From contig NC_043000.1 in NCBI RefSeq assembly GCF_006345805.1, positions 148,490,001 to 148,554,000 of the forward strand: a DNA stretch of 64,000 bases, in the 5' to 3' direction. This document shows positions 8,426 through 60,715 of the stretch, in pieces. A model generated the notes under the pieces. The model saw only the letters and a program-made list of their open reading frames with translations, did no database searches and had not been told where the DNA came from. Within the stretch, counting starts at the first letter, position 1. Each line of letters starts with the position of its first letter. The DNA is from Octopus sinensis (taxonomy: Eukaryota). The position numbers and the translations under genes were made by a program.

Positions 8426-9424
8426 GGCGGCGAGCTGGCAGAAACGTTAGCACGCCGGGCGAAATGCGTAGCCGTATTTCATCTGCCGTTACATTTTGAG
8501 TTCAAATTCCGCCGAGGTCGACTTTGCCTTTCACCCTTTCGGGGTCGATAAATTAAGTACCAGTTACGCACTGGGGTCGATATAATCGACTTAATCCGTT
8601 TGTCTGTCCTTGTTTGTCCTCTCTGTGTTTAGCCCCTTGTGGGTAGAAAAGAAATAGGTATTTCGTCTGCCGCTACGTTCTGAGTTCAAATTCCACCGCG
8701 GTCGACTTTGCCTTTCATCCTTCCTACGTTCTGAGTTCAAATTCCACCGCGGTCGACTTTGCCTTTCATCCTTCCGGGGTCGATTAAATAAGTACCAGTT
8801 ACGCACTGGGGTCGATATAATCGACTTAATCCGTTTGTCTGTCCTTGTTTGTCCTCTCTGTGTTTAGCCTCTTGTGGGTAGTAAAGAAATAGGTATTTCG
8901 TCTGCCGCTACGTTCTGAGTTCAAATTCCGCTGAGGTCGACTTTGCCTTTCGTCCTTTCGGGGTCGATTAAATAAGTACCAGTTACGCGCTGGGGTCGAT
9001 ATAATCGACTTAATCCGTTTGTCTGTCCTTGTTTGTCCTCTCTGTGTTTAGCCCCTTGTGGGTAGTAAAGAAATAGGTATTTCGTCTGCCGCTATGTTCT
9101 GAGTTTAAATTCCGCCGCGATCGACTTTGCCTTTCATCCTTTCGGGATCGATTAAATAAGTACCAGTTACGCGCTGGGGTCGATATAATCGACTTAATCC
9201 GTTTGTCTGCCCTTGTTTGTCCCCTCTGAGTTTAGCCCCTTGTGGGTAATAAAGAAATAGGTATTTCGTCTGCCGCTACGTTCTGAGTTCAAATTCCGCC
9301 GAGGTCGACGTTGCCTTTCATCCTTTCGGGATCGATTAAATAAGTACCAGTTACGCACTGGGGTCGATCTAATCGGCTGGCCTCCTCCCGCCAAAATATG
9401 GGTCTTGTGCCTAGAGTAGAAAAA
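8426..9424 (+). mobile_element. Deu/Nin-like SINE tandem array (head + 4 type-A units + unit with type-B tail)
   Basis: tatttc unit starts at 8475, 8659, 8894, 9078, 9262 (184-bp period; second unit has a 51-bp internal duplication). Confidence 0.93.
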
Positions 9425-10851
9425 ATTCAAAGCACTGATTGCTCGTCGGAAACCTATAATCAACGACGCTGTTGTTAAGATGTAATGCAAAATAAAAAGT
9501 AAAAAATATAGTAAAAACCACGATAAACAATCAATCATAAAGTCTCTGCATTTTCTTACATTTCTTCAGCAGGGGGCTCCATTAATAGTTCTGACCACTA
9601 ACTTCAAATGTGTGTGTGTAGTTATTTATTTGTATGTGCATTTATGTGTGTAAAAATGTATTCCTGTTCTCTGCTTGTATTTTTGCTTTTTTGTGTGTGT
9701 GTGTGAGTGAGTGAGTGTGTTGGTTTTATTTCTGACTAATTCAGAGTGTTTGACGGTGACAGAAACGGTTTTTTTCGAAAGCCACCTATAATTTCCCAAA
9801 CAACATTGTTTTGAAATGACTGTCATTTTCTGTAATTATATGTTATAGAACATTTGTTAATTCTAGACAAATACAATTTGTCAAAAAAATTGAAATGAAA
9901 AAAAATGGACAGCAATGTTAGACATAAAAAAAAAAACATTTGTAAATCGATGCTGAAATTCTAAATCTTTGAATATGTGTGTATTTGCATGTGTGTAAGC
10001 ATGTGTGGGATAGTTAAATACAATGGACAAATTATAGATTACATTGATTTTATGATTTATTATTTTTTCAGATATTTTTTTTTCTCTGCTATATATTGTC
10101 TTTCCTTGAAAACTTCATCAGGTGTAAATAATGTATAACATTGTTATTCAATCCCATCCCCCAATCTCTACCATTCTCCTTCAGATGCATAAAAAGTTAA
10201 AATTAGAAAAAAAAACTGCCCGGGAATATAATTCCTAAAGCCAAATAATATTTCTAATATTTCTGAGACGAATGACGTGTGCCCGACTGACAGATAAAAT
10301 CGATAATGAAGTCATTGTGCAATATTTTGGTTGGAAACCGGTTCATTGTTTTTATGTAAGGAAAATTAGAATGAAGAATGCTAAATCATGAATAAAAGGA
10401 CGCAGAGGCATAAATATCTGAAAGACTTTGTTGGTAGAGCAACGATAGGCATATTGATCAAAGAATGAATTTTTATTCTCCATACTAGCCACCACCTTAA
10501 AATCAATGAATACGCTAAGTTTTTATGCTGCTTCACCGTTTCGATGGAAATGAAAGAGGAAAAAGAAAAAGAAAAATTGCACCAAAAGCGGAATGGCTGG
10601 TGTTTGAATAAATATTAATCTCTTTTGATTAGGAACGAGGCCAACTTTTCATGGGAATGTGTAAAATCGATTAAATCGACCCTGGTACATTACAAGTATT
10701 TACTTGATCGAATCTAGAGTGATAAAAAGCAGAGTCAAAGCTAACAGGTTTAGGCCCACGTCTACAGAGGGAGAAAAGTAAGATATAGAATATTTAGTAT
10801 GGTAGTCCACCGTACTTTTACGCACACTGTGTGTGTGTGTGTATACATACA

Positions 10852-11405
10852 TGGTGGCTGCCCCCTCGTTATCGAGTATGGCCATTGCACGAAGCTTAAT
10901 CAATGTTGTTATCGTGCAATGCCTGTGCAAGAAGATTTATTTTTAAAGTGAGGAAAGGCTGTGCACTGTGTCAATCCCACTCACTAAGCAACAACAGCCA
11001 TAATCCGAAAAGAATAACAAGTCAACATCATCGGTAACCACTGAGCCGCTAGTTTTATGTTGGAGTTATCCCAGTTTCCTGAGTTACCTTCTCCTAGAAG
11101 GATCCCCCAACAAAGGCTAGGAGTGCTTCACTCCCAATGGTTTAACCACGCGATCGGGTATTCAGTCCGATTATTTCTATGTCCCCGCGCATGATACAGC
11201 CTTAAGACATTTATTGGATGGCCATTGACTCTCAAGAGTTCCTCCGCTCTTTGACGGGTTTTGTTTTTCATCCCGCAGGGTGTCCAATAAAAACCCTCCT
11301 CACCAAGCAAGCTGGGTGGGGTTGCCGGTTTAGTCGCCGACGACCCGACCATGCAACAGATTGTACTGGGTTACATGTTACCAGTAGCACTCGAAAGTGA
11401 CCTGA
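10852..11405 (-). mobile_element. non-autonomous RTE-related element (5'UTR-like part + 3' tail) in ACAT microsatellite
   Basis: Non-coding; contains ggagaaggtaactc, similar to the RTE 5'UTR motif, and ends cgataacgagggggcagccacc-atgtatgtat; flanked by (ACAT)n/(TG)n. Confidence 0.5.
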
Positions 11406-11425
11406 CATACATACATACATACATA

Positions 11426-11566
11426 CTAGCGTAGCTCGTGGAGGGTAGTGGCGGTCTGCCGCCCGGGCGGCACCTTTGGGTCTGCTGTAGGCAATATGTG
11501 TTTTTTGAGGGGTCCTGTGGGTGGCAAACGAAAGGGCCGCCCCGGGCGGCACTACTCTAGCTAGTG
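11426..11566. mobile_element. GC-rich small MITE-like element
   Basis: Ends ctagcgtagct / tagctagtg; two gccgccc(c)gggcggcac subterminal motifs; embedded in (ACAT)n. Confidence 0.45.
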
Positions 11567-11575
11567 TACATACAT

Positions 11576-11682
<107 letters not shown>

Positions 11683-12375
11683 CACACACGCACACACGTT
11701 GTTGGCCGACCAGAATCTTGTAAGTGAATTTAGTAGACAGAAACTGTATGGGAATCCGTCATATACATGTGAATGTATGAGAATGTGTGTGCATGCGTGT
11801 GTGTGTACCTGTCTTTATGTTTGCCTGTCTCCTTCACAACCGGTCCTGCTTTGTTTATGTCTCCATATACATTAGCAGTTCAATAGAAGAGGCCAACAGT
11901 GTAAGTACAGACTTAGAATATAAGTAGTAAAGTCGATTTGTTCAACTAAATCCTTCGAGGTAGTGCCCTAGCATAGCTGCATTCCGTTATAACCTCTGGT
12001 ATGAGTTGGCGTTTTTTTTTTTTAGACATGGCAGAGAACATTACTCTCCTGCACTGACCACAGTCGATTTCTTCCAGAAAGAGAGACAGGTTGAGAGAGA
12101 GAGAGAGGGGGGAGGGAGAGAGAGAGAGAAGAATCAATCCAGTACAGGACTGGTACTTTATTTATCGTTCCTGAAAAGAAGAAATGCAAAGTTGGCCTCC
12201 ATACTACTTGAACTCAAAGATCCGGAACAACTACTGCAAGGCAACCTACCCAACGCGCTAACCATTCGGCCAAAGCGCTACTTTATATCATCATCATCAT
12301 CATCATCGTCATCGTCATCGTAATCATCGTAATCATCACCAAAACTGCTATTAAGGTAATAATCAGTCTAATATA

Positions 12376-12608
12376 TATTTCTTTACTGCCCACAAAGGGC
12401 TAAACATAGAGGGGACAAACAAGGACAGACAAAGGGATTAAGTCGATTACATCGACCCCAGTGCGTAACTGGTACTTTATTTATCGACTCCGAAAGGATG
12501 AAAGGCATAGTCGACCTCTGCGGAATTTGAACTCAGAACGTAACGTCGGACGAAATACGGCTACGCATCTCGCCCGGCGTGCTAACGTTTCTGCCAGCTC
12601 ACCGCCTT
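12376..12608 (-). mobile_element. monomeric Deu/Nin-like SINE with 15-bp TSD
   Basis: aatcagtctaatata at 12361-12375 and 12610-12624. Confidence 0.92.
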
Positions 12609-12719
12609 CAATCAGTCTAATATAATTACATGAACACCTTGAACGCCAACACCAATGGTACCAACAAACCCCCTCACACAAAATTAAAAACAAGAAAACA
12701 GTTCAGCACCACTAACAAT

Positions 12720-13860
12720 GCTATTTCTTTATTACCCACAAGGGGCTAAACATAGAGGGGACAAACAGGACAGACATAGGTATTAAGTCGATTATATCGA
12801 CCCCAGTCGTAACTGGTACTTATTATCGACTCGACTCCGAAAGGATGAAAGGTAAAGTCGACCTCGCGGAATTTGATCTCACAACGTAACGACAGCCGAA
12901 ATACCTATTTCTTTATTACCCCCAAGGGCTAAACACGAGGGGACAAACAAGGACAGACATAGGTATTAGTCGATTATATCGACCCCAGTGCGTAACTGGT
13001 ACTTAATTTATCGACTCCGAAAGGATGAAAGGTAAAGTCGACCTCGCGGAATTTGATCTCACAACGTAACGACAGACGAAATACCTATTTCTTTCTTATT
13101 ACCCACAAGGGGCTAAACACAGAGGGGACAAACAAGGACAGACATAGGTATTAAGTCGATTATATCGACCCCAGTGCGTAACTGGTACTTAATTTATCGA
13201 CTCCGAAAGGATGAAAGGTAAAGTCGACCTCGGCGGAATTTGATCTCACAACGTAACGACAGACGAATACCTATTTCTTTATTACCCACAGGGCTAAACA
13301 CAGAGGGGACAAACAAGGACAGACATAGGTATTAAGTCGATTATATCGACCCCAGTGCGTAACTGGTACTTAATTTATCGACTCCGAAAGGATGAAAGGT
13401 AAAGTCGACCTCGGCGGAATTTGATCTCACAACGTAACGACAGACGAAATACCTATTTCTTTATTACCCACAAGGGGCTAAACACAGAGGGGACAAACAA
13501 GGACAGACATAGGTATTAAGTCGATTATATCGACCCCAGTGCGTAACTGGTACTTAATTTATCGACTCCGAAAGGATGAAAGGTAAAGTCGACCTCGGCG
13601 GAATTTGATCTCACAACGTAACGACAGACGAAATACCTATTTCTTTATTACCCACAAGGGGCTAAACACAGAGGGGACAAACAAGGACAGACATAGGTAT
13701 TAAGTCGATTATATCGACCCCAGTGCGTAACTGGTACTTAATTTATCGACTCCGAAAGGATGAAAGGTAAAGTCGACCTCGGCGGAATTTGATCTCACAA
13801 CGTAACGACTGACGAAATACGGCCACGCATTTCGCCCGGCGTGCTAACGTTTCTGCCAGC
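12720..13860 (-). mobile_element. Deu/Nin-like SINE tandem array, 6 units of about 184 bp
   Basis: Repeated gacgaaatac|ctatttct junctions at about 12905, 13085, 13270, 13453, 13637; all units share gatctcacaac, ggtaaagtc and acataggtattaag variants. Confidence 0.95.
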
Positions 13861-14295
13861 ACCAATACCTCCTTCTCCTCCTCCTCCGCCTCCTCCTTTA
13901 TCACAATCAACGCCAACATTATTTCCAAACCTGCACAGCCACCAACCAACACCGCAAATAAACCAAACAGAAAAATAACAATGTCAACTCAACAGTAGCA
14001 GCAATTCAGCACAGGCATCTATCTCAGCGTAAGCAGCAACATTTGCAGCTGTAACAAGCAGAAGAGACCACGTGATGAAAAAATAATAACTTAGGTGAAG
14101 GAGTGCCTCGTTTATTATTTTTTTTCCCCTTCTAGAGTCCTACTATTATTGTTCAGTTATTTGCTACAAGAGAAAAATGAAGGAAGAAAAAAAGAGTAAG
14201 GAAAAGGAAGAAGGAAAAAAAAAAGACATAAGCTCAACAAAAGAACTTAACAAATAAACAAACGAATGGAATTTATTACATACTAATTCACTTAC

Positions 14296-14331
14296 GTTGC
14301 TAAAACCTCTCCAACTTAATTTGGCCGCCAT
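14296..14331 (-). CDS. putative first coding segment (MAAKLSWRGFSN) of a host gene, in candidate exon 14296-14521
   Basis: Minus strand: ttttttttctAG acceptor at 14522-14523, caacATGG Kozak context, 12 codons, phase-0 donor CAAC|GTAAGT; unique non-repeat sequence. Confidence 0.45.
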
Positions 14332-14801
14332 GTTGAATTATTTGCAGCCTTGTTAATTGAAGAACAGTTAGACGGCCGGCTTCTGGTGTTGAAGAAAAGT
14401 GTTCCCAATACGGCCCATTCATACAGCGTTCAAATGGTCAGTGATAATGAAATTCATAATTCGACCCAGTGAACTTGGTATGCGGTAGAATTACAGGTCT
14501 TGCGGGGCAAAGATATGGCTGCTAGAAAAAAAATAAATATGAAATAGCGTTAGAGAAAAACGTTAGCGATAGTTATAGGAATTAAAGGTGATCGATACAT
14601 TGTTCAGTGTTATGATTAGTTTCAATACTGGTGGTATATCATATTCTCCTTCGGCACACACACATACACACACACTGCCCAGCCTTCTTGACCGCCTCTC
14701 TTTACTGCTACTATACACACAAGTACTTACTGCTATTGTACATACAGACACGGGTACGCACCTACACATGCACACACACACGTGCTCAGACACACCCACT
14801 C

Positions 14802-14857
<56 letters not shown>

Positions 14858-15527
14858 TTTATAATAAAGGGCTAAAGAAGATATTTCTAAAGCCAATATA
14901 CTGATTATCCACTTATAATCCACTTGCTACAGGAAAAAATGAACTGAAAATTCCTGATGGAATTCTCTTCTGTAGAGAAAAGGGCTTCATCCTATATTTG
15001 TTAGTATATATATATATATATGGGGGGGGGGGGCACAGCCGTGGCATATGAAATCGATAGACTAAGTACTAGGATTACAAAGATTAAGTCTTGGGGTCGA
15101 TATCTTCGATTAAAATCCCTTTAAGGCGGTGCTCTAGCACGGCCGCAGTCGTATATATACATAATTGAATTAATTACATACACATGTACCCTCACACATA
15201 AGCGCGCGTGCGCACATACACACACATCACACATCACACACAATCAATCACTCTTGTATAACTCTCTTGTCATTAAAACCACAATTACCCCTCACACTTC
15301 CGACTAGTCAGCGATCAATAATATGAACCTAACCCACATGCGTTTTTTGTTTGTTTGTTTTTTAGTACTCTTCTCTTTTTTATCCCCTTTCCTCTCTTCT
15401 TTCCCTTTCTAGTTTCTTCTGGACTTTCTTCAAGTATGCGACGAAAGACTCAGTCCGAAACGTTCTATTTCTCCGCTATAACTTTTACTCTATATCATAT
15501 ATCCTTCTTTGAGCGTCAACTTAATAA

Positions 15528-15742
15528 TAATCCTTTCCAATATATAAGCACATAGTCTGAAATTTTGGTGGAGTGGGCTAGCCGATCACAACGACCCCAT
15601 TGTGGTACTTATTTCCTCAACCCCGGAACGATGAAAGGCAAAGTCGACCTTGGCGAAATTTGAACTAAGAACGTAAACACGGAACGAAATGCCGCTAAGC
15701 ATTTTGTCCGGTGTGTTAACGGTTCTACCAGCTCACTGCCTT
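15528..15742 (-). mobile_element. older Deu/Nin-like SINE (type-B tail) with TSD
   Basis: gcgtcaacttaa at 15513-15524 and 15743-15754. Confidence 0.8.
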
Positions 15743-15950
15743 GCGTCAACTTAACGATATTAACTGTGAACTGGGACTTTTATTGTTTTTTATTATTTGT
15801 TTTTGTTTTACTTTAGTATCGCACGCACAAGCAAACTTTCCACTTCTGTCTGATCAATATTTTGGAGTACCATAATTCTTGGATTATGTTACACCTTAGA
15901 TATTACCACTTCAGATTACTTCTGATCTTCCCCCTTTGTGTTGTGTGTGT

Positions 15951-16006
<56 letters not shown>

Positions 16007-17100
16007 AAGTATATGCCACTTTGTATGTATGACATCAAAGACGTATCTTTGTCAAGGACATTAACGCTAGTTCCTTCATTGAGCTCTAGACTGTGACCTT
16101 TAACTTTTTGTGTCTTCATTTTATCATATAGTCCTCTTTTGTGCTACAGATCATATATCATTCGTTATGACATCAAAATATCACATTTGAAATTTCCAAA
16201 CATTTTCTTTTATTGCCAATTTTTGCGGAACCGGGTTGCTGAGATGTCTGACTTATGTATTATAAATTGATTTGAAATTCGTGCATCGCTTGAATAACCA
16301 CTTCAAGTTCCAAATATTATCAGCTCCAATCATTTTTATTTGCACCTCGTTATTCAAAACTTTTCGAGGGTTGTGTCGGAGTTTCATGTGCTGTCTTTAC
16401 ACGAAATTCAAAACCGGGAGATGACATGTACTTTCAAAAATAGTGGACCGTCTCACTAAACGCCACATCATATTTTATTAGCAACTGAAAATAATTTTCT
16501 GTCTATTTAGAATGGTTATATTTTGGGAATCATCTTAATCTCTTTATCAAAAGTATAGGCAGACGTTCATATACTTTTATCTTTTGCTAGAGATAAAAGT
16601 ATATAAACGTGGAGTCATTGGTAAAGGAAATATAGGCGTCGGGTGAGATATTTTTCTAAGTGTTTATTTTCTTGTCTTTCTTTTCATTCACTGTAAAGTA
16701 AAACAAGCGTGTTTATTTTTCTTTCTTCTTTCATGAAGTAGTTCTAAAATATATTAATAACGCTGTTGATAGTGCATTCCTATGTGCTCATCATCGTTGA
16801 AGAAAACATTTTAATGACAGAAAAGTTAAGATACAATACATAGTGACATTTTACTTGATATTTGTAGTGAAAAGATATGGTTGACAGAGATAATCTTACT
16901 AATGTCTGATATCTATTTTATCGAATACAGTGAGTTAAAAGCAAAGTCACCTCAACAGGATTTGAACATTAAGAGATGAAACATTTACTATGGTGCTCTC
17001 GGGTATCTGTCACTCACTGCCGTCTGTAAGAGTGGGTCGCTGGATAACCGCACACAGTTTCGTCTACGTCTAGTGTATATCAAAACAACTTAGATTGGCT

Positions 17101-17201
17101 GTTGAATGCATCGGTTCTCGTCTGATCACCGAAGTTAAGCAACGCCGAGCCTAGTTAGTACTTAAACGGGTGACCGCTCGGGAAACCTGGGTGCTCTAAG
17201 C
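17101..17201 (+). pseudogene. 5'-truncated 5S rRNA pseudogene
   Basis: gttgaatgcatcggttctcgtctgatcaccgaagttaagcaacgccgagcctagttagtacttaaacgggtgaccgctcgggaaacctgggtgctctaagc matches metazoan 5S from about nt 18 to the end; box C is mutated (aaacggg vs ggatggg); no oligo-T terminator directly after. Confidence 0.9.
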
Positions 17202-17340
17202 AACTCACATTATTACAATTATTTTTTTTTTACCGGAGCAAAATGCAAAGAGGCATTTCGTCCGTCTTGACGTTTTGACTTCAAATTTCGCCGAAGCCGA
17301 CTTTGATTTTCATCTTTCCGAGGGTCGATAAAATAAGTAC

Positions 17341-17465
17341 CTATTTCTTTATTACCCACAAGGGGCTAAACACAGAGCGGACAAACAAGGACAGACATAG
17401 GTATTAAGTCGATTACATCGACCCCAGTGCGTAACTGGTACTTAATTTATCGACCCCGAAAGGAT
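17341..17465 (-). mobile_element. type-A Deu/Nin-like SINE inserted in an older + strand copy (17240-17340), cut by the assembly gap
   Basis: taagtac|ctatttctttattacccac junction. Confidence 0.8.
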
Positions 17466-17565
17466 NNNNNNNNNNNNNNNNNNNNNNNNNNNNNNNNNNN
17501 NNNNNNNNNNNNNNNNNNNNNNNNNNNNNNNNNNNNNNNNNNNNNNNNNNNNNNNNNNNNNNNNN
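17466..17565. other. assembly gap (100 N)
   Basis: Run of n. Confidence 1.
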
Positions 17566-17570
17566 TATAT

Positions 17571-17601
<31 letters not shown>

Positions 17602-17683
17602 CATACATATATATATATATATATATAATAGATTATATATATATTATAGATATATATATATCTATATATATATATATCTATAT

Positions 17684-17716
<33 letters not shown>

Positions 17717-17717
<1 letters not shown>

Positions 17718-17960
17718 TGGGTTGGTGCCTAATTATTGCGCCGTTCTTTAACAAGTTTTATTCTACAAGAACAATAACAACATGTAACAAAAACATCTTT
17801 AAATGATTATTCCGGAACTTTTCACCACCTACTTCAATTACTGCTTCCCATTTGCTTGGCAGACGGTCAGATCGTCATTTAAAGATGTTTTTGGTAAATA
17901 TTGCTATTGTTTTTGTTGAATAAAATTTGGTGAAAAAAGCCGCAATAATTATGCACCAAC
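17717..17960. mobile_element. palindromic mariner-derived MITE
   Basis: TIRs ttgggttggtgcctaattattgcg / cgcaataattatgcaccaac (Hsmar1-like); interior encodes RLPSKWEAVIEVGGE (mariner C-terminus) on minus; inserted in (TA)n; followed by a SINE 3' half (17961-18130). Confidence 0.8.
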
Positions 17961-18484
17961 GCTTGACAACCGATGCTGGTGTGTTTACGTCCCCTTCACA
18001 TAACGGTTCGGCAAAAGTGACCGATAGAATAAGTGCTAGGCTTACAAAGAATAAGTCCTGGGGTCAATTTGCTCGACTAAATGCGGTGCCTCAGCATGGC
18101 CACAGTCAAATGACTGAAACAAGTATAAGAGATATATGTAAATATATATATGTAGATATGTATATGTGTGTGTATGTATATATTTATATGTATATGTATG
18201 TGTGTGTGTGTGTGTGTGTGTGCGTGTGTGTAAATGTATATATATATGTATGTGTTTGTGTGTGTAAGGAATTCATAAATGGAATAATATCCCCTTACAC
18301 AGCACAGCTAATTAGCGCTCTAATTTATCAACTTGTAATTTTTTTCTAAAAATAATTAGTTTATATGATTTTAACCTAGTTACCTTTTATGCATTTGGAT
18401 ACATCTTAAAACAGTATTATCTATAGCTTCAAAATTTATTTAGACATGTAATTTTAACTCTTATTATATTATCAGCCTGAACAG

Positions 18485-18900: not shown

Positions 18901-19006
18901 GTAACAGTATGTTCCGACACGGCATTCAATTTTTAAAAATTCTTAAATTTCTCATGTTTCTTAATACTTTAAGATTTAAATAACTCTTTTATGAATCCTT
19001 TAGATT

Positions 19007-19095: not shown

Positions 19096-19167
19096 TTGCA
19101 CCTGCTCAAGATTCCTTTTAAAATCATTTTATACCAACTTTCACATCTATTTGGATTACCGCTATAT

Positions 19168-19787: not shown

Positions 19788-19841
<54 letters not shown>

Positions 19842-23391: not shown

Positions 23392-23800
23392 AGGCGGTGA
23401 GCTGGCAGAGACGTTAGCACGCTGGGTGAGAAGCTTAGCTATATTTCTTCTGTCTTTATGTTCTGAGTTTAAATTCTGCCTAGGTCGACTTTGCCTTTCA
23501 TCCTTTCGGGGTCTATAAATTAAGTACCAGATGCATACTGGGTTCAATCTAATCGACTGCCCCCCCTCTTCCAAAATTTCAGGCCTTGTTCCTAGAGTAG
23601 AAAAAAATCGTTAGCTTGCCGGGCGAAATACTTAGCAGTATTTCGTCTGTCTCTACGTTCTAAGTTCAAATTCTGCCGAGGTCGACTTTACCTTTCATCC
23701 TTTCGGGGGCGATAAACCAGTTGAGTATTGAGGTCGATGTAACAGACTGTCCCTCTTCTTCCAAATTTCAGGTCTTGTGCCTAGATTAGAAAGGATTATT
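23392..23800 (+). mobile_element. two tandem type-B Deu/Nin-like SINEs
   Basis: Heads at 23392 and about 23608; tails aatttcagg(c/t)cttgt(t/g)cctaga. Confidence 0.8.
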
Positions 23801-25543: not shown

Positions 25544-26345
25544 TTTTTCATAAACCGAAATGAAAAAAGAATCTGATCTAGAATTAAAATTTTGATTCAT
25601 ATTGAATGTCAATTAAAAATTGAATTTTAAAAATCTAGCGTCTCTCTTAAACTTGAATTATGATTTTAGTTCAAGATGCAATTTTACGTAAAGAAAAAGA
25701 AAATTATTCAGCTGGAACGACTATATTCCAGTTATGGTTTATGATAACATCTTCAGAAATATTGCCGGAAAAAAAAATTGAAAAATAAAACAAGCAAACA
25801 AACGGTAAAAGAAGTGCACCGAAAATATTTTCATTGCAATAAATATAGTGTTAGAAACTCATATTAGGTGGTTTGATAAACATTAAAATAAACCTGAGAA
25901 AAGACATTTGGTGTCTATTTAGAAGAAAATTTAATGAAAGAAAAATTTTTGAAAATATTTATGTACTTTTATATAGCATAACAACTTGGTTCCACCTTCT
26001 TTAGTATCAGGTATTACCAGAAATGGAAATACTTGAATCAACAAGAGAACCAAAACTTTAGAAATATCGACTTTCCCTTTAGGGTAAATACGTTCGTAAA
26101 TACCAGAGTTAACAAGTGGGGAGAAAGAGAGAGAAGAAAATGTATTTTACTGGTGAAGGCAGTGGGAACATCATAACATTGACAAATGTCTCCTTGACGA
26201 GAAGTTCTGAGCTGGGAGCGTCATCCATTGAGAAAGGAAAAAAAAAACGAGATATGACAAAAAATGGTGCTGCGACAATAGCTTAGCAGTATCAGTAACA
26301 ACAGCTGGAGCAGCCGTAGCAGCAGCAGCAGCGGCAACAACCAGT

Positions 26346-33154: not shown

Positions 33155-33564
33155 TATTTCTTTACTGCCCACAAGGGGCTAAACACAGAGGGGACAAACA
33201 AGGACAGACAAACGGATTAAGTCGATTACATCGACCCCAGTGCGTAACTGGTACTTAATTTATCGACTCCGAAAGGATGAAAGGCAAAGTCGACCTCGGC
33301 GGAATTTGAACTCAGAACGTAACTGCAGACGAAATACGTATTTCTTTATTACCCACAAGGGGCTAAACAGAGAGGTGACAAACAAGGACAGACAAACGGA
33401 TTAAGTCGATTACATCGACCCCAGTGCGTAACTGGTACTTATTTAATCGACTCCGAAAGGATGAAAGGCAAAGTCGACCTCGGCGGAATTTGAACTCAGA
33501 ACGTAAAGACAGACGAAATACGGCTACGCATTTCGCCCGGCGTGCTAACGTTTCTGCCAGCTCG
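33155..33564 (-). mobile_element. Deu/Nin-like SINE dimer
   Basis: Junction gacgaaatac|gtatttct at about 33338. Confidence 0.9.
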
Positions 33565-33908
33565 ATAATTAGCCAAAACAGTACGCGACACCAAAACATA
33601 CTCATTCGCGGTGACGGCTGGCAACTACTACTACTACTACTACTACTACAACTGCAGCTGTTGCTACTGAAACTACTACTACTACTGCCACCATCGTTAT
33701 CAATGCCATGATCCTTAATTTTGTATCATGTTATCTTAAAGAGGTAGCATGAAATAGATTCAGTGATATTATAGATGTCTATTCAAACAAACAGGAAATC
33801 ATTCGTATAGAATGACAGCAAGAAATCGGCATTATGGTGGACAATTAGTAACGGGGATATATGACAGAGCAACTTGGACAAATTACTACCCACCACTATC
33901 CTCACCAT

Positions 33909-37241: not shown

Positions 37242-37589
37242 TAATAATAATAACAACAATAATAATATAGTGTCTTTTCTTTTTGCCCTTTTTTTTTTGT
37301 TATATATCACGTAGATAAAACAACCAACACGGGAGCCTTTACGGGGTCAAACAACAAGAAATTCCTCAAATCATACTGTCTTGTCTTGAAAAAGAAAATA
37401 AACACATCGGATAATTGATAGACTATGCCTGAAGAATTAAGACAGGAAATGGTTTGAACTTAAAGCAGAACAAGAGGCAGGATAAAATTTTTAAAAAACT
37501 AAAATAGAGACAAGCATTTAGATAGATTTATGTTCGAAACTCTGGCTATAGATATCGCTTTATGTAAAATTTGACATTCTCAACCATAC

Positions 37590-37822
37590 CTATTTCTGTA
37601 TTATCCACAAGGGGCTAAACACAGAGGGGACAAACAAGGACAGACAAACGGATTAAGTCGATTACATCGATCCCAGTGCGTAACTGGTACTTAATTTATC
37701 GACCCCGAAAGGATGAAAGGCAAAGTCGACCTCGGCGGAATTTGAACTCACAACCTAACGGCAGACGAAATACCGCTAAGCATTTCGCCCGGCGTGCTAA
37801 CGTTTCTGCCAGCTCGTCGCCT
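37590..37822 (-). mobile_element. monomeric type-A Deu/Nin-like SINE with TSD
   Basis: tttgacattc(t/c)caac flanks at about 37570 and 37822. Confidence 0.9.
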
Positions 37823-38236
37823 TTGACATTCCCAACGTTTTATAAGTTAGCTGAGAGGACATTTTTCTTCCACTTCATCTTTCCTTTGTGTAACACATGA
37901 AAAAGATGAAGTTGGTTTTTCACTTGAGAAGAAACGATGTTTTCAGCCTTAGATCTGTCACAACAGCCCACATAAAAATCACTTAGCTATCTTTATCAAA
38001 GGCGATTATTATGGTTCTCAAGTAATTCATGTGATAACATCCTACATATATTAGCTATTAGCTTAAGCCTACCGGCAACTGAGTAACATGCATTAAAATA
38101 CGAATTCATGTAAGAGTTTGTTATTTTTCCCTCCTTCCTCTCTGACGTCAAGACATCTTTTCCTACCAATCCCAGATATTTCAGTCCCACTTATCCTTAT
38201 TCATTCAACATTAAATCAAAAAGAACGGGGGGGGGG

Positions 38237-41692: not shown

Positions 41693-41925
41693 TATTTCTT
41701 TACTACCCACAAGGGGCTAAACACAGAGGGGACAAACAAGGACAGATAAACGGATTAAGTCGATTAGATCGACCCCAGTGCTTAACTGGTACTTAATTTA
41801 TCGACCCCGAAAGAATGAAAGGCAAAGTCGACCTCGGCGGAATTTGAACTCACAACGTAACGGCAGACGAAATACGGCTACGCATTTCGCCCGGCGTGCT
41901 AACGTTTCTGCCAGCTCACCGCCTT
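41693..41925 (-). mobile_element. monomeric type-A Deu/Nin-like SINE with 17-bp TSD
   Basis: gcacaagaatattaata at 41676-41692 and 41926-41942; abuts an older type-B copy (41943-42068). Confidence 0.93.
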
Positions 41926-47339: not shown

Positions 47340-48601
47340 TGTATGTATGTATGTATGTATGTATGTATGTTTGTATGTATGTATGTATGCATGCATGCAT
47401 GTATGTATGTATGTATGTATGTATGTATGTATGTACGTACGTATGTATGTATGTATGTATGTATGTATGTACGTATGTATGTATGTACGTATGTATGTAT
47501 GTACGTATGTATGTATTTGCGAACGACACACCGGTCTCACGCCATTTCCGCTCCACCGGTCACTCCTTGCAACACCTATCTGTGTTCGGTTTGTCCTTAC
47601 ACAGAGGCCATCCGGATTCCCGTTTGCGCCGTGAACAGGAATTAATCTTCTCTCTTCGCTCTTATACGCCATTTGGTCTCAATTCTCCCCCCTCCTCATC
47701 TAACCTCACCCCCCTCCTCACCTATCCTTTCTCTCCCCCCGACCCCTACTTCTTCAGTCCTTCATCCTTTCACCCCTACTCCCCTTCCCTTCTTCCCTCT
47801 TTCTCCCTCCCTCTTCCCCTTCCCTCTTCCCTCTTTCTCCCTCCCTCTTCCCCTTCCCTCTGCTCCCTCACTCCCTCTCTCCCCTTCTCTCTCCCCCTCT
47901 CCCTCTTTCCTCCTTCATCCCCCTCATCCCCTTCCTTCTCCCCCATCCTCTCCTCTCCCCCTTCTCCTCCCCCTCTTCTTCCCCTCCCCTTCTCTCCGCC
48001 CTCTTCTCCCCCTCCCCCTCTTCTCCTCACTACACCACATGACTTTACACATCACATCACATATGATGTGCCATACTAATACACACACCAACTAATACAT
48101 ACTAATACGTACTAATACATACTAGTACATACTAATACTTACACCAACCCTATACATACACACGTCCAGACCCCGCATACGCACTTATACTCTCTCACAC
48201 ACACACACACACACACACCTATACATACCAATACGTACTAATACATACTAATACATACTAATACATACACCAACCCCATACATACGCACGTCCAGACCAA
48301 TCTTACGCACTAATACTCTCTCATCACACACAACACACACACACACACCACACACACACACACACCCTTATACATACTAATACATACACCAACCCTATAC
48401 ATACACACATCCAGACCCCTCCCACGCACTTTTAGCTGGTCCCTCAACCCGTTTATCAACCCTATTATCTCCCCTTATTTCGCTCTCGCGTCTCATGTTT
48501 GATCTTTGACCTCTGGCCGAAATCAGATCGCCATGTTGATTCGTTAGCTACTGCACGCATTTTTTTCTCTCCTTCTTTCTGTGTTTTTCTCTCTCTGTGT
48601 A

Positions 48602-52269: not shown

Positions 52270-52888
52270 CTCACCCCCCTCCCACCTATCCTTCTCTCCC
52301 CCCGACCCCTACTTCTTCAGTCCTTCATCCTTTCACCCCTACTCCCCTTCCCTTCTTCCCTCTTCTCCCTCCCTCTTCCCCTTCCCTCTTCCCTCTTTCT
52401 CCCTCCCTCTTCCCCTTCCTCTGCCCTCCCTCACTCCCTCTCTCCCCTTCTCTCCCCCTCCCCCTCTCCCTCTTCCCTTCATCCCCCTCATCCCCTTCCT
52501 TCTCCCCCATCCTCTCCTCTCCCCCCTCTCCTCTCCTCCTCCCCCTCTTCTTCCCCCCCCCTTCTCTCCCCCTCTTCTCCCCCTCCCCCTCTTCTCCTCA
52601 CTACACCACATGACTTTACACATCACATCACATATGATGTGCCATACTAATACACACACCAACTAATACATACTAATACGTACTAATACATACTAGTACA
52701 TACTAATACTTACACCAACCCTATACATACACACGTCCAGACCCCGCATACGCACTTATACTCTCTCACACACACACACACACACCTATACATACCAATA
52801 CGTACTAATACATACTAATACATACTAATACATACACCAACCCCATACATACGCACGTCCAGACCAATCTTACGCACTAATACTCTCT

Positions 52889-52923
<35 letters not shown>

Positions 52924-53155
52924 ATACATACTAATACATACACCAACCCTATACATACACACATCCAGACCCCTCCCACGCACTTTTAGCTGGTCCCTCA
53001 ACCCTTTTATCAACCCTATTATCTCCCCTTATTTCGCTCTCGCGTCTCATGTTTGATCTTTGACCTCTGGCCGAAATCAGATCGCCATGTTGATTCGTTA
53101 GCTACTGCACGCATTTTTTTCTCTCCTTCTTTCTGTGTTTTTCTCTCTCTGTGTA

Positions 53156-53193
53156 TCTTTCTGTTGAAGAGCGTAGGCTCGAAACGTTAAAGA
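53156..53193 (+). ncRNA. minimal hammerhead motif in the 3' pLTR
   Basis: Identical to 48602-48639. Confidence 0.75.
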
Positions 53194-54122
53194 CTTGTTT
53201 TATTTATATTTCCCGAGCGCCATACTAATACAATTGTTCGTTTGTTTTCCACCTGCCTTCGTCTTTTGTTTATTTTCATAAAGCTTCCCGTTATGTATGT
53301 ATGTATGTATGTATGTATGTATGTATGTATGTATGTACGTATGTATGTATGTATGTATGTATGTACGTATGTATGTATGCATGTATGTATGCATGTATGT
53401 ATGTATGTATGTATGTATGTATGTATGTATGTATGCATGTATGTATGTATGTATGTATGTATGTATGTATGTATGTACGTATGTATGTATGTATGTATGT
53501 ATGTATGTATGTACGTACTATGTATGTATGTATGTATGTATGTATGTATGTACGTATGTATGTATGTATGTATGTATGTATGTACGTACGTATGTATGTA
53601 TGCATGTATGTATGCATGTATGTATGTATGTATGTATGTAAGTATGTACGTATGTATGTATGTATGTATGTATGTATGTATGTATTCAATCTGCAATAAT
53701 ATCAGTTAAGAGTTATTCATATCGCAAAGTAAGTAAGCTAATATCTGCATCGAAATATTTTGACCTACTCCAAATTCCTCCTATCTTTTTTCACTAATAA
53801 GGCTTTACGAAGATATACGCCGTTTCTCTGCTTCTAATTTATTTATTTTCAATCGTAAGATTTGACAAATAACGTAGAATTTTTAAAGGCATTTGCTTTT
53901 TTTTACTGTTACTTTATAAAGGATTTATTTGGGAGTAGGGGTCGGGTAAAAATCATTAATAGAATGCATTTAATACTTACTTAGTAGAAGTTCGTATAAA
54001 TTTCCATGATTTCATAGGTTTAAAATAAATCTAAGAACTCTGTTCAGATAATCTAGCGAAAGTTTTTAATGTTTTCGTGGCAAAAAAGCCTAGAGGATTA
54101 TTATTAATATATTTCTATTTGT

Positions 54123-54510
54123 AAGGCGGCAAGCTGGCAGAAACGTTAGCATGCCGGGCGAAATGCTTAGCAGTATTTCGTCTTACGCTATGTTCTGAGT
54201 TCAAATTCCACCGAAGTCGACTTTGCCTTTCATCCTTTCGTGGTCGATTAAATAAGTACCAGTTACGCACTGGGGTCGATGTAATCGACTTAATCCGTTT
54301 ATCTGTCCTTGTTTTCCCCCTCTGTGTAGCCACTTGTGGGCAGTAAAGAAATAAGAAACGTTAGCACGCTGGTATTTCGTCTGCCTTTACGTTGTGAGTT
54401 CAAATTCCGCCGAGGTCGACTTTGCCTTTCATCCTTCTGGGGTCGATAAATTAAGTACCAGTTGGTACCAGTTGCGTACTAGGGTCGATCTAATCGACTG
54501 CCCTCCTCCC
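54123..54510 (+). mobile_element. Deu/Nin-like SINE dimer (type-A unit then type-B tail)
   Basis: aagaaataa|gaaacgttagcacgctgg|tatttc junction at about 54350. Confidence 0.85.
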
Positions 54511-55099
54511 TATTTTCGAACTGTGTACTTGGAAATTTCAAGTCATTGATATTTCTCGCGAATCTTACTTGGAAATTTCATCCATTGAAATTACTAATTT
54601 ATTTTATGTTTCTTTTTCTATTGTTTCGCTATCGAGCGCCCCAAGAAAGTCTCATAACGTGGCAAGCAATTCTCTGTCTCATAAAGGAATAGCTTCTTTG
54701 CTGAGTACTTGCAGCTATACTGCGCGTCTTTCAGTAAGTGTTACTGTCTTTTTACATAACTGCTCGTAAGAAGAGACATTTAATATCTGACATGATCCAA
54801 ATTACTTGGTTGATTCAAAAAACAAAACAAATTAGTAGAATCAAGATTTCTGCAGATAAACGATAATCTGAACGTTGGCTTAGAGCAGTGTTACTAACCT
54901 ATAGATTAAATCTAAAAGTTTCAAATATATGTAAAGTATAGAAGCCATCTTATCATGGCTAACCACATTGGGGAGGGGGTGTTACTGTAGCTTTATAGCC
55001 CCAAGAGATCTTCGTCTCTAGCTGGCTTTAGACACAATATCAGTGTCCTTGGAGTATTTGAAAAGGGAGGCCATCCCTTCCTCGCAAGCCTGAGTGATA

Positions 55100-55142
55100 C
55101 GCTCGAACTAGTTTCGGGATTGTTGTCCCTCGTCAACGGGCG
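55100..55142 (-). ncRNA. type I hammerhead motif in a ~250-bp GC-richer element (about 54950-55190)
   Basis: Minus: CGCCCG TTGACGA GGGA-caacaa-TCCC GAAA CTAG TT CGAGCG. Confidence 0.72.
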
Positions 55143-56231
55143 GTAACCACCAGGTCGCGATGAAAGTGAAGACCGCTTTGCAAACATATATAAGTTTTTC
55201 TAATGGCGTCTGCCACTGATGTCGAGATTTAATTATGCTTTCAAATATATGTTATACAACAAGCTATAGGCATTAGGCTTACGAAGCAGCGGTTACTGCA
55301 GGCACAAACAGGGGAATTTTTCTCCAAGAAAAGTATCAAATAGTAAGTGTACCTCGTTGGAATATTACAAAAATGGGTTACAAAGGGTCACAGATTTTCC
55401 AGTATTACTATTGTAGACTAGCAGCATACGTAGGTTACTATAGGCTAACTTTTGAAAGTAAATAATACTGTACACTTTCTGGTCCGTACAAGAAGTCTAT
55501 CGTATTCGTAATATTTTATTCATCTAAATCAATGATGAAAATAATAGTAGTATTCAGCTGTTGCTGTTTGTTCGTGTTATTTCCTATTCTGTAAGCGATC
55601 TAGCCACACGTACATGGTACACACTACACATACAGACATATACTCACATATGCATAATAACAGTAACTTAACTGTATGTGGCTAGCACAACAAAAGACCT
55701 TGAAAAGTAAAAAGGTGATTACGTTTATCCGGATACCGCAATCTATATATAGCAAATATATTGTCTAAACATCGTTTGTTTGAAGCTACTTTCCTGACAA
55801 AACATTTGAATGGGAGTTATAATTCGAAACCAGTCGAAAAATAAAACAACTTTCGATTTAACAACTATATAACTTTTGTATCAGTTCGGTATTGTGCTTT
55901 CCGAGAGATTTATTTTCTTTGTGATCGTACGGCTATTGTAGTTTTGACATTCCAGAAGAGAGTCGTCCATTATCACATCTTTTTTTCTATGCATAAATTT
56001 TTATTCAATCATATGTATTTTTTCTTTTATTCAGCAAGCTGTGGAGTTTTATTCACTAGCTTCAAAGTATGATGCAGCTTCTCTGATTTCGTAGGCTATA
56101 GCTGAGAAAAAGCAACTTTCATCCTATTTGTATGATATTTTCTATATTAAAAATTCAGAGTTATTAACTCTAATACCTAATTTTACATTCCTGTTACCAG
56201 CGACTCTTCTCGCATTTTGGTATGAATACAC

Positions 56232-56302
<71 letters not shown>

Positions 56303-56490
56303 CAGACATATATACATACAGACATGCATACATACATACATACATACATACATACAATACATACATACATACATACATATACATACATACATACATACAT
56401 ACATACATACATACATACATACATACATACGTATATACGTACATAAGTACATACAAACATTCATATACATGCGTGCACGTGAATGCATGC

Positions 56491-56567
<77 letters not shown>

Positions 56568-57244
56568 TGTATGTATGCATGTATGTATGTATGTATTGGC
56601 AACAATATGACTTGCTATATTTCGGTTCTCGGTACCTCAGTCTCGAGTTCAAAACTCCACTATAATCAACTTTACTTTAATCATCTAGAAATTCAAGAAA
56701 TATATACCAGTAACCTACTAATGATTCAATAATCGATCCAATCGATAATACACCTCTTTCCTACAAATATTGGCTTTGTGATACAGAAATCAATACTTAA
56801 AAAATCAATATGCTATAACGTTTTTGAAATTATTTTCAACACGAAAAATTTAACTCATGAAAATTTTTTCCTGTAGTTTTCGTTTACATTTTTTAAAACC
56901 TTGTTATCTTCATTTATTTGACATTTTATAATAGCTGAGCATGCACAGAGATGTCTATGTTCAAAATGCTGTTACACATTCCTCTTACCAAGGAGTTACG
57001 CATAGATAAGACTAAAATAAGTAAGTTCTTGTTAAATATACCCTGAATATGTTTTCTATGCTTTTTTGCTGCATGGATAGTTGATATAAACATGGCTCGT
57101 TTGTACTTGTGTCTTCTTCATTTATATAAACACATTTGTTTTTATTCCTTTCGTGTCATGTAGATAGATGACATCCTTGTATATATGAAAACTAACATTT
57201 CATTTTATGCGCAAATAAATGGTAAAGCCATGCGGAGATAGGAG

Positions 57245-57624
57245 GGAGGAGGAAGCACTCCGTCGGTTACGACGACGAGGGTTCCGGTTGATCCGAATCA
57301 ACGGAACAGCCTGCTCGTGAAATTAGCGTGTAAGTGGCTGAGCACTCCACAGACACGTGTACCCTTCACGTAGTTCTCGGGGATATTCAGCGTGATACAG
57401 AGAGTGACAAGGCCGGCCCTTTGAAATACAGGTACAACAGAAGTAAGAGTGAGAGAAAGTTGTGGTGAAATAGTACAGCAGGGATCACCACCATCCCCTG
57501 CCGGAGCCTCGTGGAGCTTAGGTGTTTTCGCTCAATAAACACTCACAACGCCCAGTCTGGGAATCGAAACCGCGATCCTATGACCGCGAGTCCGCTGCCC
57601 TAACCACTGGGCCATTGCGCCTCC
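57245..57624 (-). mobile_element. full-length OR-like tRNA SINE with 11-bp TSD
   Basis: ggagataggag at 57234-57244 and 57626-57636; head ggaggcgcaatggcccagtggttagggc. Confidence 0.92.
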
Positions 57625-58261
57625 AGGAGATAGGAGTATCATGTTGAACAAACAGAAAAACCAGAGTCGCTGTAAATGTAACTCAAAGCAAGCAGTCGGG
57701 GGTCTTTCAAATACAAGTGCGGGAATATGAAATCATAAACACAATGAAATCAAAGCAAAATGGGAATTGAAATATTGCGTAGCTGATATGTACGGATGTG
57801 ATCTCTTGGTTGAACTAAGAATCGCTAAGAATTATTTCCTGAAGATGTAAAGCATCCAATGGAAGTCGGTAGATTCATCAATTGTAATAAGTTACATGAT
57901 GTCATGACAACTTGGTTGGTTACATTAAGAATAATGTTTTTACAGTAAGAATAATGCTTATGATACGAATAACTGAGGCCATGAGAAAAGCTATAGTAAA
58001 CAGCAGCTTATAAAGACATTAACGGTCGCCCATGACACAAGATATGCAAAAAGTGCTACGAAAACATTTGTGGATGTTAAAATCGAGACAAAATAACGGT
58101 TTACTTAAGATATGTGTTTCAGCATCTGTTCTTTTGTCCATATTCTATAATTTATAAGGAGGAAATTCGTTACTTTTAAAGGGATCTTGCCCACTCATCC
58201 TCCGCTCAGTATTAGTAACAAAAAACGTATTGAGATCCTTGCCAGTAATGTAAATGCAAAT

Positions 58262-58294
<33 letters not shown>

Positions 58295-59314
58295 TTCTAT
58301 CTCTCTCTCTCTCTTTCTCTCTCCGTCTCCATCTCTCCATCTCCCTCTCCATCTCCCTCTCCATCTCCCTCTCCATCTCTCCCTCTCTCCCTCTCCCCAT
58401 TCTGCTAGTTATAATATTGAAAAAAAATGTGAAACTGTGATGCTGTTTTTTAGCTTGTTTATTGTCATAAGCACTTTTGTGCTACATTTGCAGTCTTCCT
58501 TGTTTTGAAAACTTTTTTAAAAAGTACACTAATAAGGGTGCCAGTGTTCAGCTTGAACGGTAAGACAACACCCTAGAGATGACCCTGAGAAAAGATTGCA
58601 GTTTGTTATATTTCCTGCTAACTATAACTTTATAACATTTTACATAGGATCAATAGCGAATTCTGTTGAACGGAGCGTCAAACATTAAGAGGTTGTTTAT
58701 AGTGATCACAAACATTTATAATATTCCTTGCGTAATATTGGGTTCAAAACTTGGCACAATGCCAGCAATTTCAGTGCTTCAGTGGTACTTATTTTATTGG
58801 CCCCGAAAGGATGAAAGATAATGTCAACTTCGGCGGAAGTTGAAATTAGAACGTGCAGACAGACGAAATGCCACTAAGCATTTTGCCCGTCTGCCAGCTT
58901 GCCGCCTTACACCCTGTATTATAATATGATTACCATTAATGTCAGCTTGAACACAATGAACCAAAGACAGAGCTTTTATATAGTCGGTGGACCTGCTAGA
59001 AATAGTAATCAGATCCCCTTTAAATTACTTCTTGCCGTCCTAAAAACCGACTAAGACTTGAATAATGTAGTCCTGGACACATTCTCTGAAAATGGTCACG
59101 GCTAGAACGCTTTTTGATCATAAAGCTTATCATTCATTGAAGGTATCATTCATTGCTTTCTTACATAATTACAAGATTTTATATCTAGAAAGAAAAGAAA
59201 TGGGTCTGTGTGACGTTCTCATTTTTCAATGGCATTACAAGTGTATAAAAACGTCATTTATCGAATAGACCTTCCATCTTCAATTCGAAACATCGAAAAC
59301 CTCGATTAACATTG

Positions 59315-60135
59315 TTGTTGTTAGTTAGTTAGTTAATTAATTTGGCTCAAAAGCAAATAGCAAGGCCATGTAGGGGGACATGGAGTTAAGTACAGGGTGG
59401 TGTTCATGTAAAGAGTTCAGGCCACTTGAGGTCCAGGGAGGCTTTGAACAAAGCGGTCGTCGGCATCTTCACCATCTCGTCTGGCAGCTTGTTCCACGGA
59501 TCCGCAACCCGGACGGAGAAAGCTCCTCTCCTTCGATTGAGATGAAATCGTCGCAGGTAGAGCTTTTCGGAATGACCCCGCAGCCGACGCTCTGGAGCAG
59601 GAGTGAAGAACAGCTCTTTAGAGAGGTTACACTTTCCGCTTATGATGTTATGGGCGAGAATGAGATCACCACGGCGGCGGCGTTTTTCAAGAGAATAAAG
59701 GTCGAGCGTCCTCAGCCTTTCTTCGTAGGACAAATTTTTGAGACCATGAACCATGCGGGTAGCCAGCTTCTGGACTCTTTCGAGATGCTGTATGTCTTTG
59801 AGGAGATAAGGAGAAGAGGCTTGAATCCCATACTCCAATATGGGTCTCACCAGCGTGACATAGAGTGGTAGGAATATGGCTGCTGTGAGCATTCCGAATG
59901 ACCGTCGAATCAAGAACAGAGTTCCGCGTGCTTTGTTGGCAGCATGGACGCACTGGGCCGAAGGCGAAAAGGAGGAATCCACCAAGATACCCAGGTCCTT
60001 TACCTGATCGGTCCTCTCCAGCAGCAGACGACCCGGCTCGAAATAAAGTTGAGTTGCAGGAGCAGAGCCGACAGGCAGATGACAGCACTTTGACACGTTC
60101 AGACACAGGTCCCAATCGTTAGATCACTTCCAAAA
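59315..60135 (-). mobile_element. CR1-clade LINE 3' fragment (open ORF2 C-terminus 59404-60096, 3'UTR, (TAAC)n tail)
   Basis: KDLGILVD, LYVTLVRPILEYG, LERVQKLATRMV..LSYEERL..L.LYSLEKRRRRGDLI, RGHS.KL, FSVRV..PWNKLP. Confidence 0.93.
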
Positions 60136-60715
60136 GGCGGCGAGCTGGCAGAAACGTTAGCACGCCGGGCAAAATGCTTAGCGGTATTTCGCCCGTCGCT
60201 ACGTTCTGAGTTCAAATTCCGCCGAGGCCAACTTTGCCTTTCATCCTTTCGGGGTCGATTAAATAAGTACCAGTTACGGACTGGGGTCGATATAATCGAC
60301 TTAATCCGTTTGTCTGTCTTTGTTTATCCTCTCTGTGTTTAGCCCCTTGTGGGTAGTAAAGAAATAGGTATTTCTTCTGCCGCTACGTTCTGAGTTCAAA
60401 TTCCACCGAGGTAGACTTTGCCTTTCATCCTTTCGGGGTCGATAAATTAAGTATCAGTTACGCACTGGGGTCGATATAACCGACTTAATCCGCTTGTCTG
60501 TCCTTGTTTGTCCTCTCTGTATTTAGCCCCTTGTGGGTAGTAAAGAAACAGAAATAGGTATTTCGCCCATCACTACGTTCTGAGTTCCAATTCCACCGAG
60601 ACCAACTTTGCCTTTCATCCTTTCGGGGTCGTACCAGTTGAGTCCTGGGGTCGATGTAATCGACTTAACCCCTCCCCAAAAAAATTTCAGGCCTTGTGCC
60701 TATAGTAGAAAGCAT
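60136..60715 (+). mobile_element. Deu/Nin-like SINE trimer (2 type-A units + type-B tail)
   Basis: gaaatagg|tatttc at about 60368 and 60558; ends aatttcaggccttgtgcctatagtagaaag. Confidence 0.92.

Follow-up and report, generated by a model that had tools for sequence, protein, structure and literature searches.

What makes a short interspersed element (SINE) build tandem arrays in which every unit restarts at the same internal position? The question is raised by a 64,000-nucleotide stretch of Octopus sinensis DNA (NC_043000.1, positions 148,490,001 to 148,554,000; hereafter the window), situated on C4 of the assembly (G000, 2.72 Gb). It contains a SINE-like repeat whose monomer, of about 230 bp, is composed of a head of 48 nt, a core of 118 nt and one of several tails, to which we gave the labels A, B1, B2 and B3 on the basis of tail motifs. 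Arrays of this element obey the formula head-(core + tail A)n-(core + any tail), with a period of 184. The sequence comparisons presented below suggest that young A units have probably inserted, in a nested manner, into older copies of the family, the 5' end of each insert being resolved by homology.

The original prediction had listed six such loci in the window. All six were found where they had been placed and, in each of them, the units restart at the identical core position following an A tail:

1268..1834, minus strand: array with head 1785-1834, young A units 1601-1784 and 1417-1600, and an old B3-type last unit 1268-1416
8426..9424, plus strand: array with head 8426-8473, four A units and a last unit made of an A-like core and a B1 tail
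8461..8480, plus strand: head stem-loop at the tRNA anticodon-arm position, its stem being present in the centroid fold
12720..13860, minus strand: six-unit homogeneous A array with a 5'-truncated head
33155..33564, minus strand: A-A dimer with a T-type tail on the inner unit and a C-type tail on the last (distance 0.054)
54123..54510, plus strand: dimer showing another type of junction, in which a C-type tail meets head position ~14, followed by a deletion; the last unit ends in no more than the start of a B tail
60136..60720, plus strand: array of a head, two A units and a B2-type last unit

The insertion site is the GG that opens the 3' arm of the head stem-loop at 8461..8480. Tandem Repeats Finder (TRF) reported period-184 arrays at 1297-1785, 8724-9375, 12721-13820, 33155-33522 and 60183-60631. 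The last tails of four loci, previously taken for a single type B, belong in fact to three subfamilies, B3 at 1268, B1 at 9424 and B2 at 60715, 54123 showing only the start of a B tail; the arrays at 12720-13860 and 33155-33564 are terminated by an A tail. What had been described as a variant junction at 54123 is a second recurrent junction, in which the tail is joined to head position ~14, combined with a deletion.

The age structure of the arrays was already visible in the window. In the array at 1268..1834, the cores of the two A units diverge by 0.033 and 0.022 and the last unit by 0.133, with an A-A distance of 0.071. Along 60136..60720 the values are 0.022, 0.044 and 0.073 (A-A distance 0.098), and a B2-like core start is common to the first and the last unit and absent from the middle one. 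The units of 8426..9424 are heterologous (A-A distances of 0.06-0.10), the second A unit carrying a 51-bp internal duplication.

The head had been regarded as tRNA-derived. Box-like motifs and two stems are visible, a likeness established by eye only; ARAGORN found 0 tRNA genes, Rfam gave no tRNA match, and the fold of the head plus one unit has a z-score of only -0.97. The element presumably resembles the octopus tRNA-derived SINEs OR1/OR2 and the CORE or Meta superfamilies in its tRNA-like head, conserved central part and exchangeable tails. These families are named in PMC4824008 and PMC4758252, and no matching motif was present in the searchable files of the supplement of PMC4824008.

The fixed junction is a general feature of the genome. 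An exact match to the 27 nt that span tail and core was found at 33,568 places (reversed control, 0), a recurrence that is not due to chance, for 90,595 exact 19-nt A tails. To these junctions a further 908 variants and part of another 5,688 have to be added; the second junction, tail to head position ~14, has 1,857 exact copies. Among the junctions listed, positions are spread along C1-C9. In 400 kb taken blind from eight chromosomes, arrays represent 7 of the 16 headed A elements, and 646 cores were counted in 0.97 Mb sampled. The first 100 exact tails on C1 include 38 exact junctions and one GGC variant; 56 others were examined individually, of which 48 lie at non-family sites, six at junction variants, one at another core position and one in antisense. 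The family is also abundant in three other sequencing runs, the segment 59700-61100 drawing more than 200,000 pieces per contig run; among the contig pieces listed for this segment none spans the locus, and 11 raw reads were aligned.

The main tests were performed on about 1.16 Mb in 187 blocks, comprising the window, the blind 400 kb and loci selected by junction patterns. Genome-wide patterns matched 218 B3-ended and 288 B2-ended arrays; 30 of each kind were fetched, and two duplicates were dropped in all. Arrays whose last unit is truncated or unclassified were excluded. The resulting set comprises 160 arrays that possess a head and a full last unit, together with 132 full monomers; the head tests also leave out seven arrays with a visible old head and three whose head is a junction. 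Most arrays are short: 117 of the 160 are dimers, and 149 have two or three units.

We observed that, in arrays ended by a B tail, the last unit is two to three times as diverged as the A unit next to it. On 90 core columns at which the subfamilies agree, it diverges by 0.136 against 0.041 for the adjacent A unit in B3-ended arrays (last unit older in 32/34), by 0.097 against 0.035 in B2-ended arrays (43/44) and by 0.085 against 0.047 in B1-ended arrays (20/25). Free monomers of the same subfamilies reach 0.148 (B3), 0.116 (B2) and 0.107 (B1), values not significantly different from those of the last units (p = 0.25, 0.055 and 0.34, respectively). Last units are also far from each other, with nearest-neighbour distances of 0.09-0.15 (minimum 0.056) and mean pair distances of 0.16-0.24. 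Private changes are shared at no higher frequency among B1 and B3 last units than among monomers, and in B2 sharing was found in 5 of 946 last-unit pairs and 1 of 378 monomer pairs. The last units are therefore independent old copies, and their star-like relationship excludes descent of the arrays from a few master arrays. In addition, a perfect outer target-site duplication (TSD) surrounds 12 of 17 A monomers and only 13 of 62 arrays (p = 2e-4); judged by these counts, the outer TSDs of the arrays are old. The family's copy counts, age profiles and consensus libraries are distorted by such chimeras of old and young sequence.

The heads tell where the young sequence ends on its 5' side. Head position 19, which distinguishes B2/B3 from A/B1, is of B type in 42 of 68 B2/B3-ended arrays and in 6 of 54 A-ended ones (p = 8e-9). 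Along B3-ended arrays, the proportion of B-type bases declines from 18/26 at head 19 to 14/27 at head 36, and to 2/26 at core 2 and 1/23 at core 94 of the first unit. The last unit of these arrays has a B-type core 2 in 6/33 cases, compared with 18/29 monomers, and is of B3 type from core 11 onward. Taken together, these states indicate that the 3' boundary of the insert is fixed, and that its 5' boundary slides through the homologous head. Rare variants common to the first and the last unit are likewise in excess over core 3-17 (46 against 26.6 after shuffling, a value reached in 0 of 2000 shuffles) and at the shuffled level over core 61-110 (18 against 18.4).

At some loci the insertion has left a direct footprint. 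An old head and a duplicated site upstream of the new head were flagged in 7 of the 160 arrays. One locus (L198) shows an insertion at an existing junction, and hence serial unit addition; at another (L191), a tail fragment truncated on its 5' side is accompanied by a TSD at the site. The pattern old head, core start, new head has 78 matches; the first 30 correspond to 21 distinct loci, of which 16 contain a duplicated piece of 15-17 nt (14-23 allowed) and 11 a downstream junction matching that piece within four mismatches. TSDs of A elements in general, that is monomers and A-ended arrays, measure 9-22 bp, 15-17 being the commonest length, in agreement with what had been announced for monomers.

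Two observations were made beside these footprints. In L018, one of the seven flagged arrays, the stem-loop of the resident copy has an inverted loop that brings the target motif onto the opposite strand, and an A dimer is inserted there with a TSD at the opposite-strand motif. Tandem units of 65-67 bp, consisting of the head and the first ~16 nt of the core and repeated exactly up to 11 times in a row, were seen at L351-L359 and L373-L376, and also at C18:40.4 Mb, C3430 and C10988; these arrays are a second minisatellite type arising at the same insertion site.

Three further features of the window bear on the choice of the site:

17253..17465, no strand assigned: antisense A tail in the core GGTAC site of another copy (control class)
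37589..37823, minus strand: A monomer whose tail continues into GGTAT and then into the flank
41693..41925, minus strand: A monomer with an ordinary TSD

A 100-base N gap (17466-17565) interrupts an A element in the window. The 33,568 sense junctions compare with 654 exact antisense junctions at GGTAC in copies of the family, a difference of about 50-fold, and in the blind 400 kb an A tail is carried by 7 of 23 GGTAT sites of the family but by only 3 of 594 GGTAT sites outside it. We therefore rejected the idea that a short microhomology is sufficient by itself, antisense GGTAC and non-family GGTAT sites being used far less. At non-family sites the upstream TSD copy begins with GGTA in 7 of 24 cases (T at position 3, 0.88; A at position 4, 0.75), suggesting a preference for such sites, due either to the RNA sequence near the tail or to the nuclease.

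Furthermore, the junction type depends on the tail. The main junction is T-type (52 against 0 in sets not selected for the junction), as are 96 of the first 100 GGC-variant junctions listed, and 87 of the first 100 second-type junctions listed are C-type. That the junction follows a one-base tail subtype points to an inherited 3' extension of the RNA. The original prediction had proposed that the tail mimics the 5' arm of the head stem: the inverted repeat at the junction is real, with a loop of 2 nt, but mimicry received no support, none of 423 A tails being joined at the 5' arm. A third junction type, in which a B1 tail is connected to head position ~17 via a short shared motif, was noticed at window 23393-23800 and in a C6 block at ~41000.

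From these data, the nested insertion of young A units into older copies, with a homologous resolution of the 5' end, appears to us the probable origin of the arrays. It corresponds to the first of the two routes initially envisaged (insertion into resident copies, one unit per event), which is now backed by the unit ages, the mosaic heads, the old outer TSDs and the TSDs at the site. The T-type A RNA would be reverse-transcribed into a nick at the fixed site of a resident copy, by target-primed reverse transcription, and the new cDNA would then anneal to the homologous head of that copy, adding one 184-bp unit and no second head. Beyond its tail, this RNA may continue with GGUAU and with the following unit, the product expected if transcription reads through an array acting as master. 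RNA polymerase III (Pol III) terminates at runs of T; a T4 run is absent from 310 of 407 A units, which makes Pol III read-through into the next unit plausible. Such an extension could base-pair with the strand that serves as primer in any copy of the family, so that the family would become its own preferred target; each new array could act as a master with the same extension, and every junction would remain a target for serial addition. Some arrays would later be copied whole or expanded locally by DNA duplication, giving the long homogeneous ones. The complete scheme, a self-reinforcing homing SINE whose read-through RNA guides a borrowed enzyme of a long interspersed element (LINE) and whose insertion is completed by cDNA-target annealing, with two tail subfamilies for two homing sites, is put forward more tentatively, as a plausible proposal that we do not yet favour.

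Several points weigh against nested insertion or its guided version. Firstly, the arrays were mostly chosen by exact patterns, chiefly on C1 and C2, and sorted with subfamily labels of our own; later local expansion and whole-array copying inflate the junction counts and the site ratios, and TSD detection is biased towards well-kept duplications (79 TSDs in 157 A monomers and arrays). Secondly, a TSD is directly visible at a minority of loci only, the headless majority being assigned by inference, and 10 of the 21 loci with an old and a new head lack a matching downstream junction, several of them being 65-bp head repeats. Thirdly, old variants shared by first and last units reach core 18-60 (24 against 12.8, p = 0.001), beyond a normal TSD, which suggests that DNA recombination has operated in some arrays. 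The supposed RNA extension also meets difficulties: the match to it ends at 4-5 nt at non-family sites (1 of 48 reads GGTATTT), and the test of the extension at the second junction gave 4 versus 4. The same excess could arise if the nuclease preferred the stem-loop, or if events were completed more efficiently at homologous sites. Finally, an unusual tail-to-mid-core junction is common to two C10 arrays (positions 25678 and 36314) that lie 10 kb from each other in different flanking sequence, and no match to the SINE tail was found at the RT-locus ends read among 50 fetched in the search for a partner LINE.

The sharing over core 18-60 leads to the alternative of ectopic gene conversion or unequal recombination at the DNA level. 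Here, monomers would copy a unit from an array during break repair, and the junction would be inherited from a few founders without any targeting. Conversion likewise yields old last units, mosaic heads and old outer TSDs, and it would explain that B1-ended last units tend to be of A type deeper into the core (core 13 of B type in 12/23, against 15/18 monomers, p = 0.05); unequal recombination is moreover the explanation given for SINE arrays in the available parts of PMC11481361 and PMC10702118, and one or the other likely accounts for the long homogeneous arrays. However, conversion predicts that both crossovers, at one register, are spread along the element, whereas in B3 targets the 3' crossover lies within ~10 nt of the junction and the 5' one in the head. 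Nor does it account for the 15-17-bp TSDs at the site, for the complete second heads and the 5'-truncated insert seen there, or for the preference for GGTA at non-family sites. We consider it unlikely as the general origin of the arrays.

An origin at the RNA level, by a template switch to A RNA at the junction or by retrotransposition of multimeric masters as a whole, is in our opinion quite unlikely. The two C10 arrays just mentioned argue for it, as does the locus L362, in which a perfect 18-bp TSD at the site surrounds a three-unit insert, and template switching has been invoked for the exchange of SINE modules (PMC4824008, in the part accessible to us). Under this origin the heads should be of A type, the outer TSDs young and the last units clustered; we found instead 42/68 B-type heads, old TSDs and star-like last units. 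Such an origin is possible for about one third of the B-ended arrays, those with a fully A-type head. The two C10 arrays end in different tails, an observation that suggests whole-array copying followed by tail exchange.

Several units would be added per event if a circular RNA, closed from tail to loop, were reverse-transcribed by a rolling-circle mechanism, or if the enzyme jumped repeatedly on one RNA; this second route of the original prediction appears very improbable. In its favour, 19 of the 45 neighbouring pairs in arrays of at least four units are more alike than 99% of random pairs, and 12720-13860 is such an array. The short arrays contradict it: the units of a dimer are 0.110 apart and those of trimers 0.083, compared with 0.100 for random pairs taken between arrays, and 32 of 42 dimers have no shared rare variant; the route cannot yield an old last unit or an old head either. 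Long arrays are mixed, some being heterologous (L075, L098, L103, L116) and others homogeneous (L011, L026, L123, L163 and window 12720). In homogeneous ones the units share aged changes, as local duplication would give. At 12720-13860, five units are mutually within 0-1.1% and yet all ~4.4% off the family majority, the last unit being 3-4% apart, which fits the later duplication of one aged unit; this array is likely such a local expansion, or in part an assembly effect. Rolling circle is possible for some long homogeneous arrays. Random tandem duplication had been argued against on account of the fixed site; ordinary local tandem duplication plays a part in long arrays, where it follows as a secondary event. 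An assembly artefact can practically be dismissed, since tens of thousands of junctions on both strands, mixed ages and subtypes within an array and TSDs around arrays speak against it, although small indels are frequent in the distal units of 12720-13860; the unit number of homogeneous arrays alone is in doubt.

Nested insertion requires an enzyme from elsewhere, and an RTE-clade LINE is a candidate source. RTE elements are described as potentially active in octopus in the accessible portions of PMC9115989 and PMC13282606. At L330 (C16:34267800-34271300), an RTE-like LINE terminates in (AG)n and then the final 17 nt of SINE tail A. This is a single hint: tail A is absent from two sister copies of this LINE, and L330 is possibly a template-switch chimera linking the LINE and the SINE. 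L343 joins the 5' portion of another repeat to the distal core and tail A of the family. The best reverse-transcriptase matches (L297-L326) lie on unplaced contigs and are near-identical intact LINEs, unlike the chromosomal ones; a very recent burst or DNA of another organism are the suggested alternatives. Elsewhere in the window, the segments 47690-48430 and 52340-52920 carry similar pyrimidine-rich and 10/122-126-bp repeat blocks, ~4.6 kb apart, likely through local duplication.

If the proposal is true, a non-autonomous element would naturally perform RNA-guided, homology-completed insertion, target choice would be inherited through RNA, and satellites would have a direct route of birth. 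The arrays form a datable record of old target, young insert, crossover gradient and TSDs, written in tens of thousands of junctions. They make it testable whether retrotransposition is a seeding step of satellites, where unequal recombination is the usual explanation, whether self-targeting is a safe-harbour strategy, and whether RNA-target pairing can steer a non-specific LINE enzyme.

How does this system compare with those already described? The following comparisons are based on the portions of the cited papers that were available to us. The closest arrays are the TSD-(SINE)n-TSD arrays of another mollusc, Scapharca broughtonii (PMC11481361), which, as here, have a single complete head, units truncated at a fixed point and one pair of TSDs. 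They amount to ~3% of high-scoring copies and are put down to unequal recombination, whereas in octopus arrays are 7 of the 16 headed A elements of the blind 400 kb. A mosaic of ages and subfamilies is not reported for them in that portion of the paper; the octopus arrays are mostly dimers of unrelated units, the last one from an older subfamily. The squamate sSats (PMC10702118) also repeat a fixed portion of a tRNA-derived SINE in tandem and have a longer terminal unit, two properties found here, and their longer arrays are more homogeneous. They extend to hundreds of units, tend to be subtelomeric and are attributed mainly to unequal recombination and homogenisation. The octopus arrays are, in contrast, short and heterologous, and bear marks of insertion where the units meet; the sSat pattern of four or more middle units that are alike within one locus is seen in only a few long arrays.

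The literature searched, which left most subscription journals and Repbase outside, contained no SINE targeting a fixed site of its own family, nor the arrays of this element; a dimeric consensus may already be present in repeat databases or supplements. The component steps are known from site-specific LINEs. For R1Bm and SART1, accurate priming is helped when the RNA matches target sequence lying downstream of the nick (PMC7265360). At the 5' junctions of R2, the cDNA either anneals to the homologous upstream target without duplication ('anneal') or is end-joined ('join') (PMC11331408), and both classes appear to be present in the octopus arrays. RTE-clade LINEs and Sauria SINEs (PMC13295347) resemble the octopus element in the correlation between the 3' end of the RNA and the first bases of the TSD, and in TA-containing nick sites; they differ in their microsatellite-like 3' ends, self-targeting is not reported for them in the part available, and the partner is putative here. 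R1Bm, SART1 and R2 are autonomous, with sequence-specific endonucleases and host targets such as rDNA and telomeres (PMC7265360, PMC11331408), whereas the octopus element is non-autonomous, targets its own family and is also inserted at many sites outside it. Its insertion occurs at one fixed position of a repeated target, the TSDs starting at the junction, but target use is not near-exclusive (48 of the first 100 exact C1 tails are at non-family sites), and ~230 bp are too short to encode an endonuclease. The element thus behaves like a site-specific element without being one.

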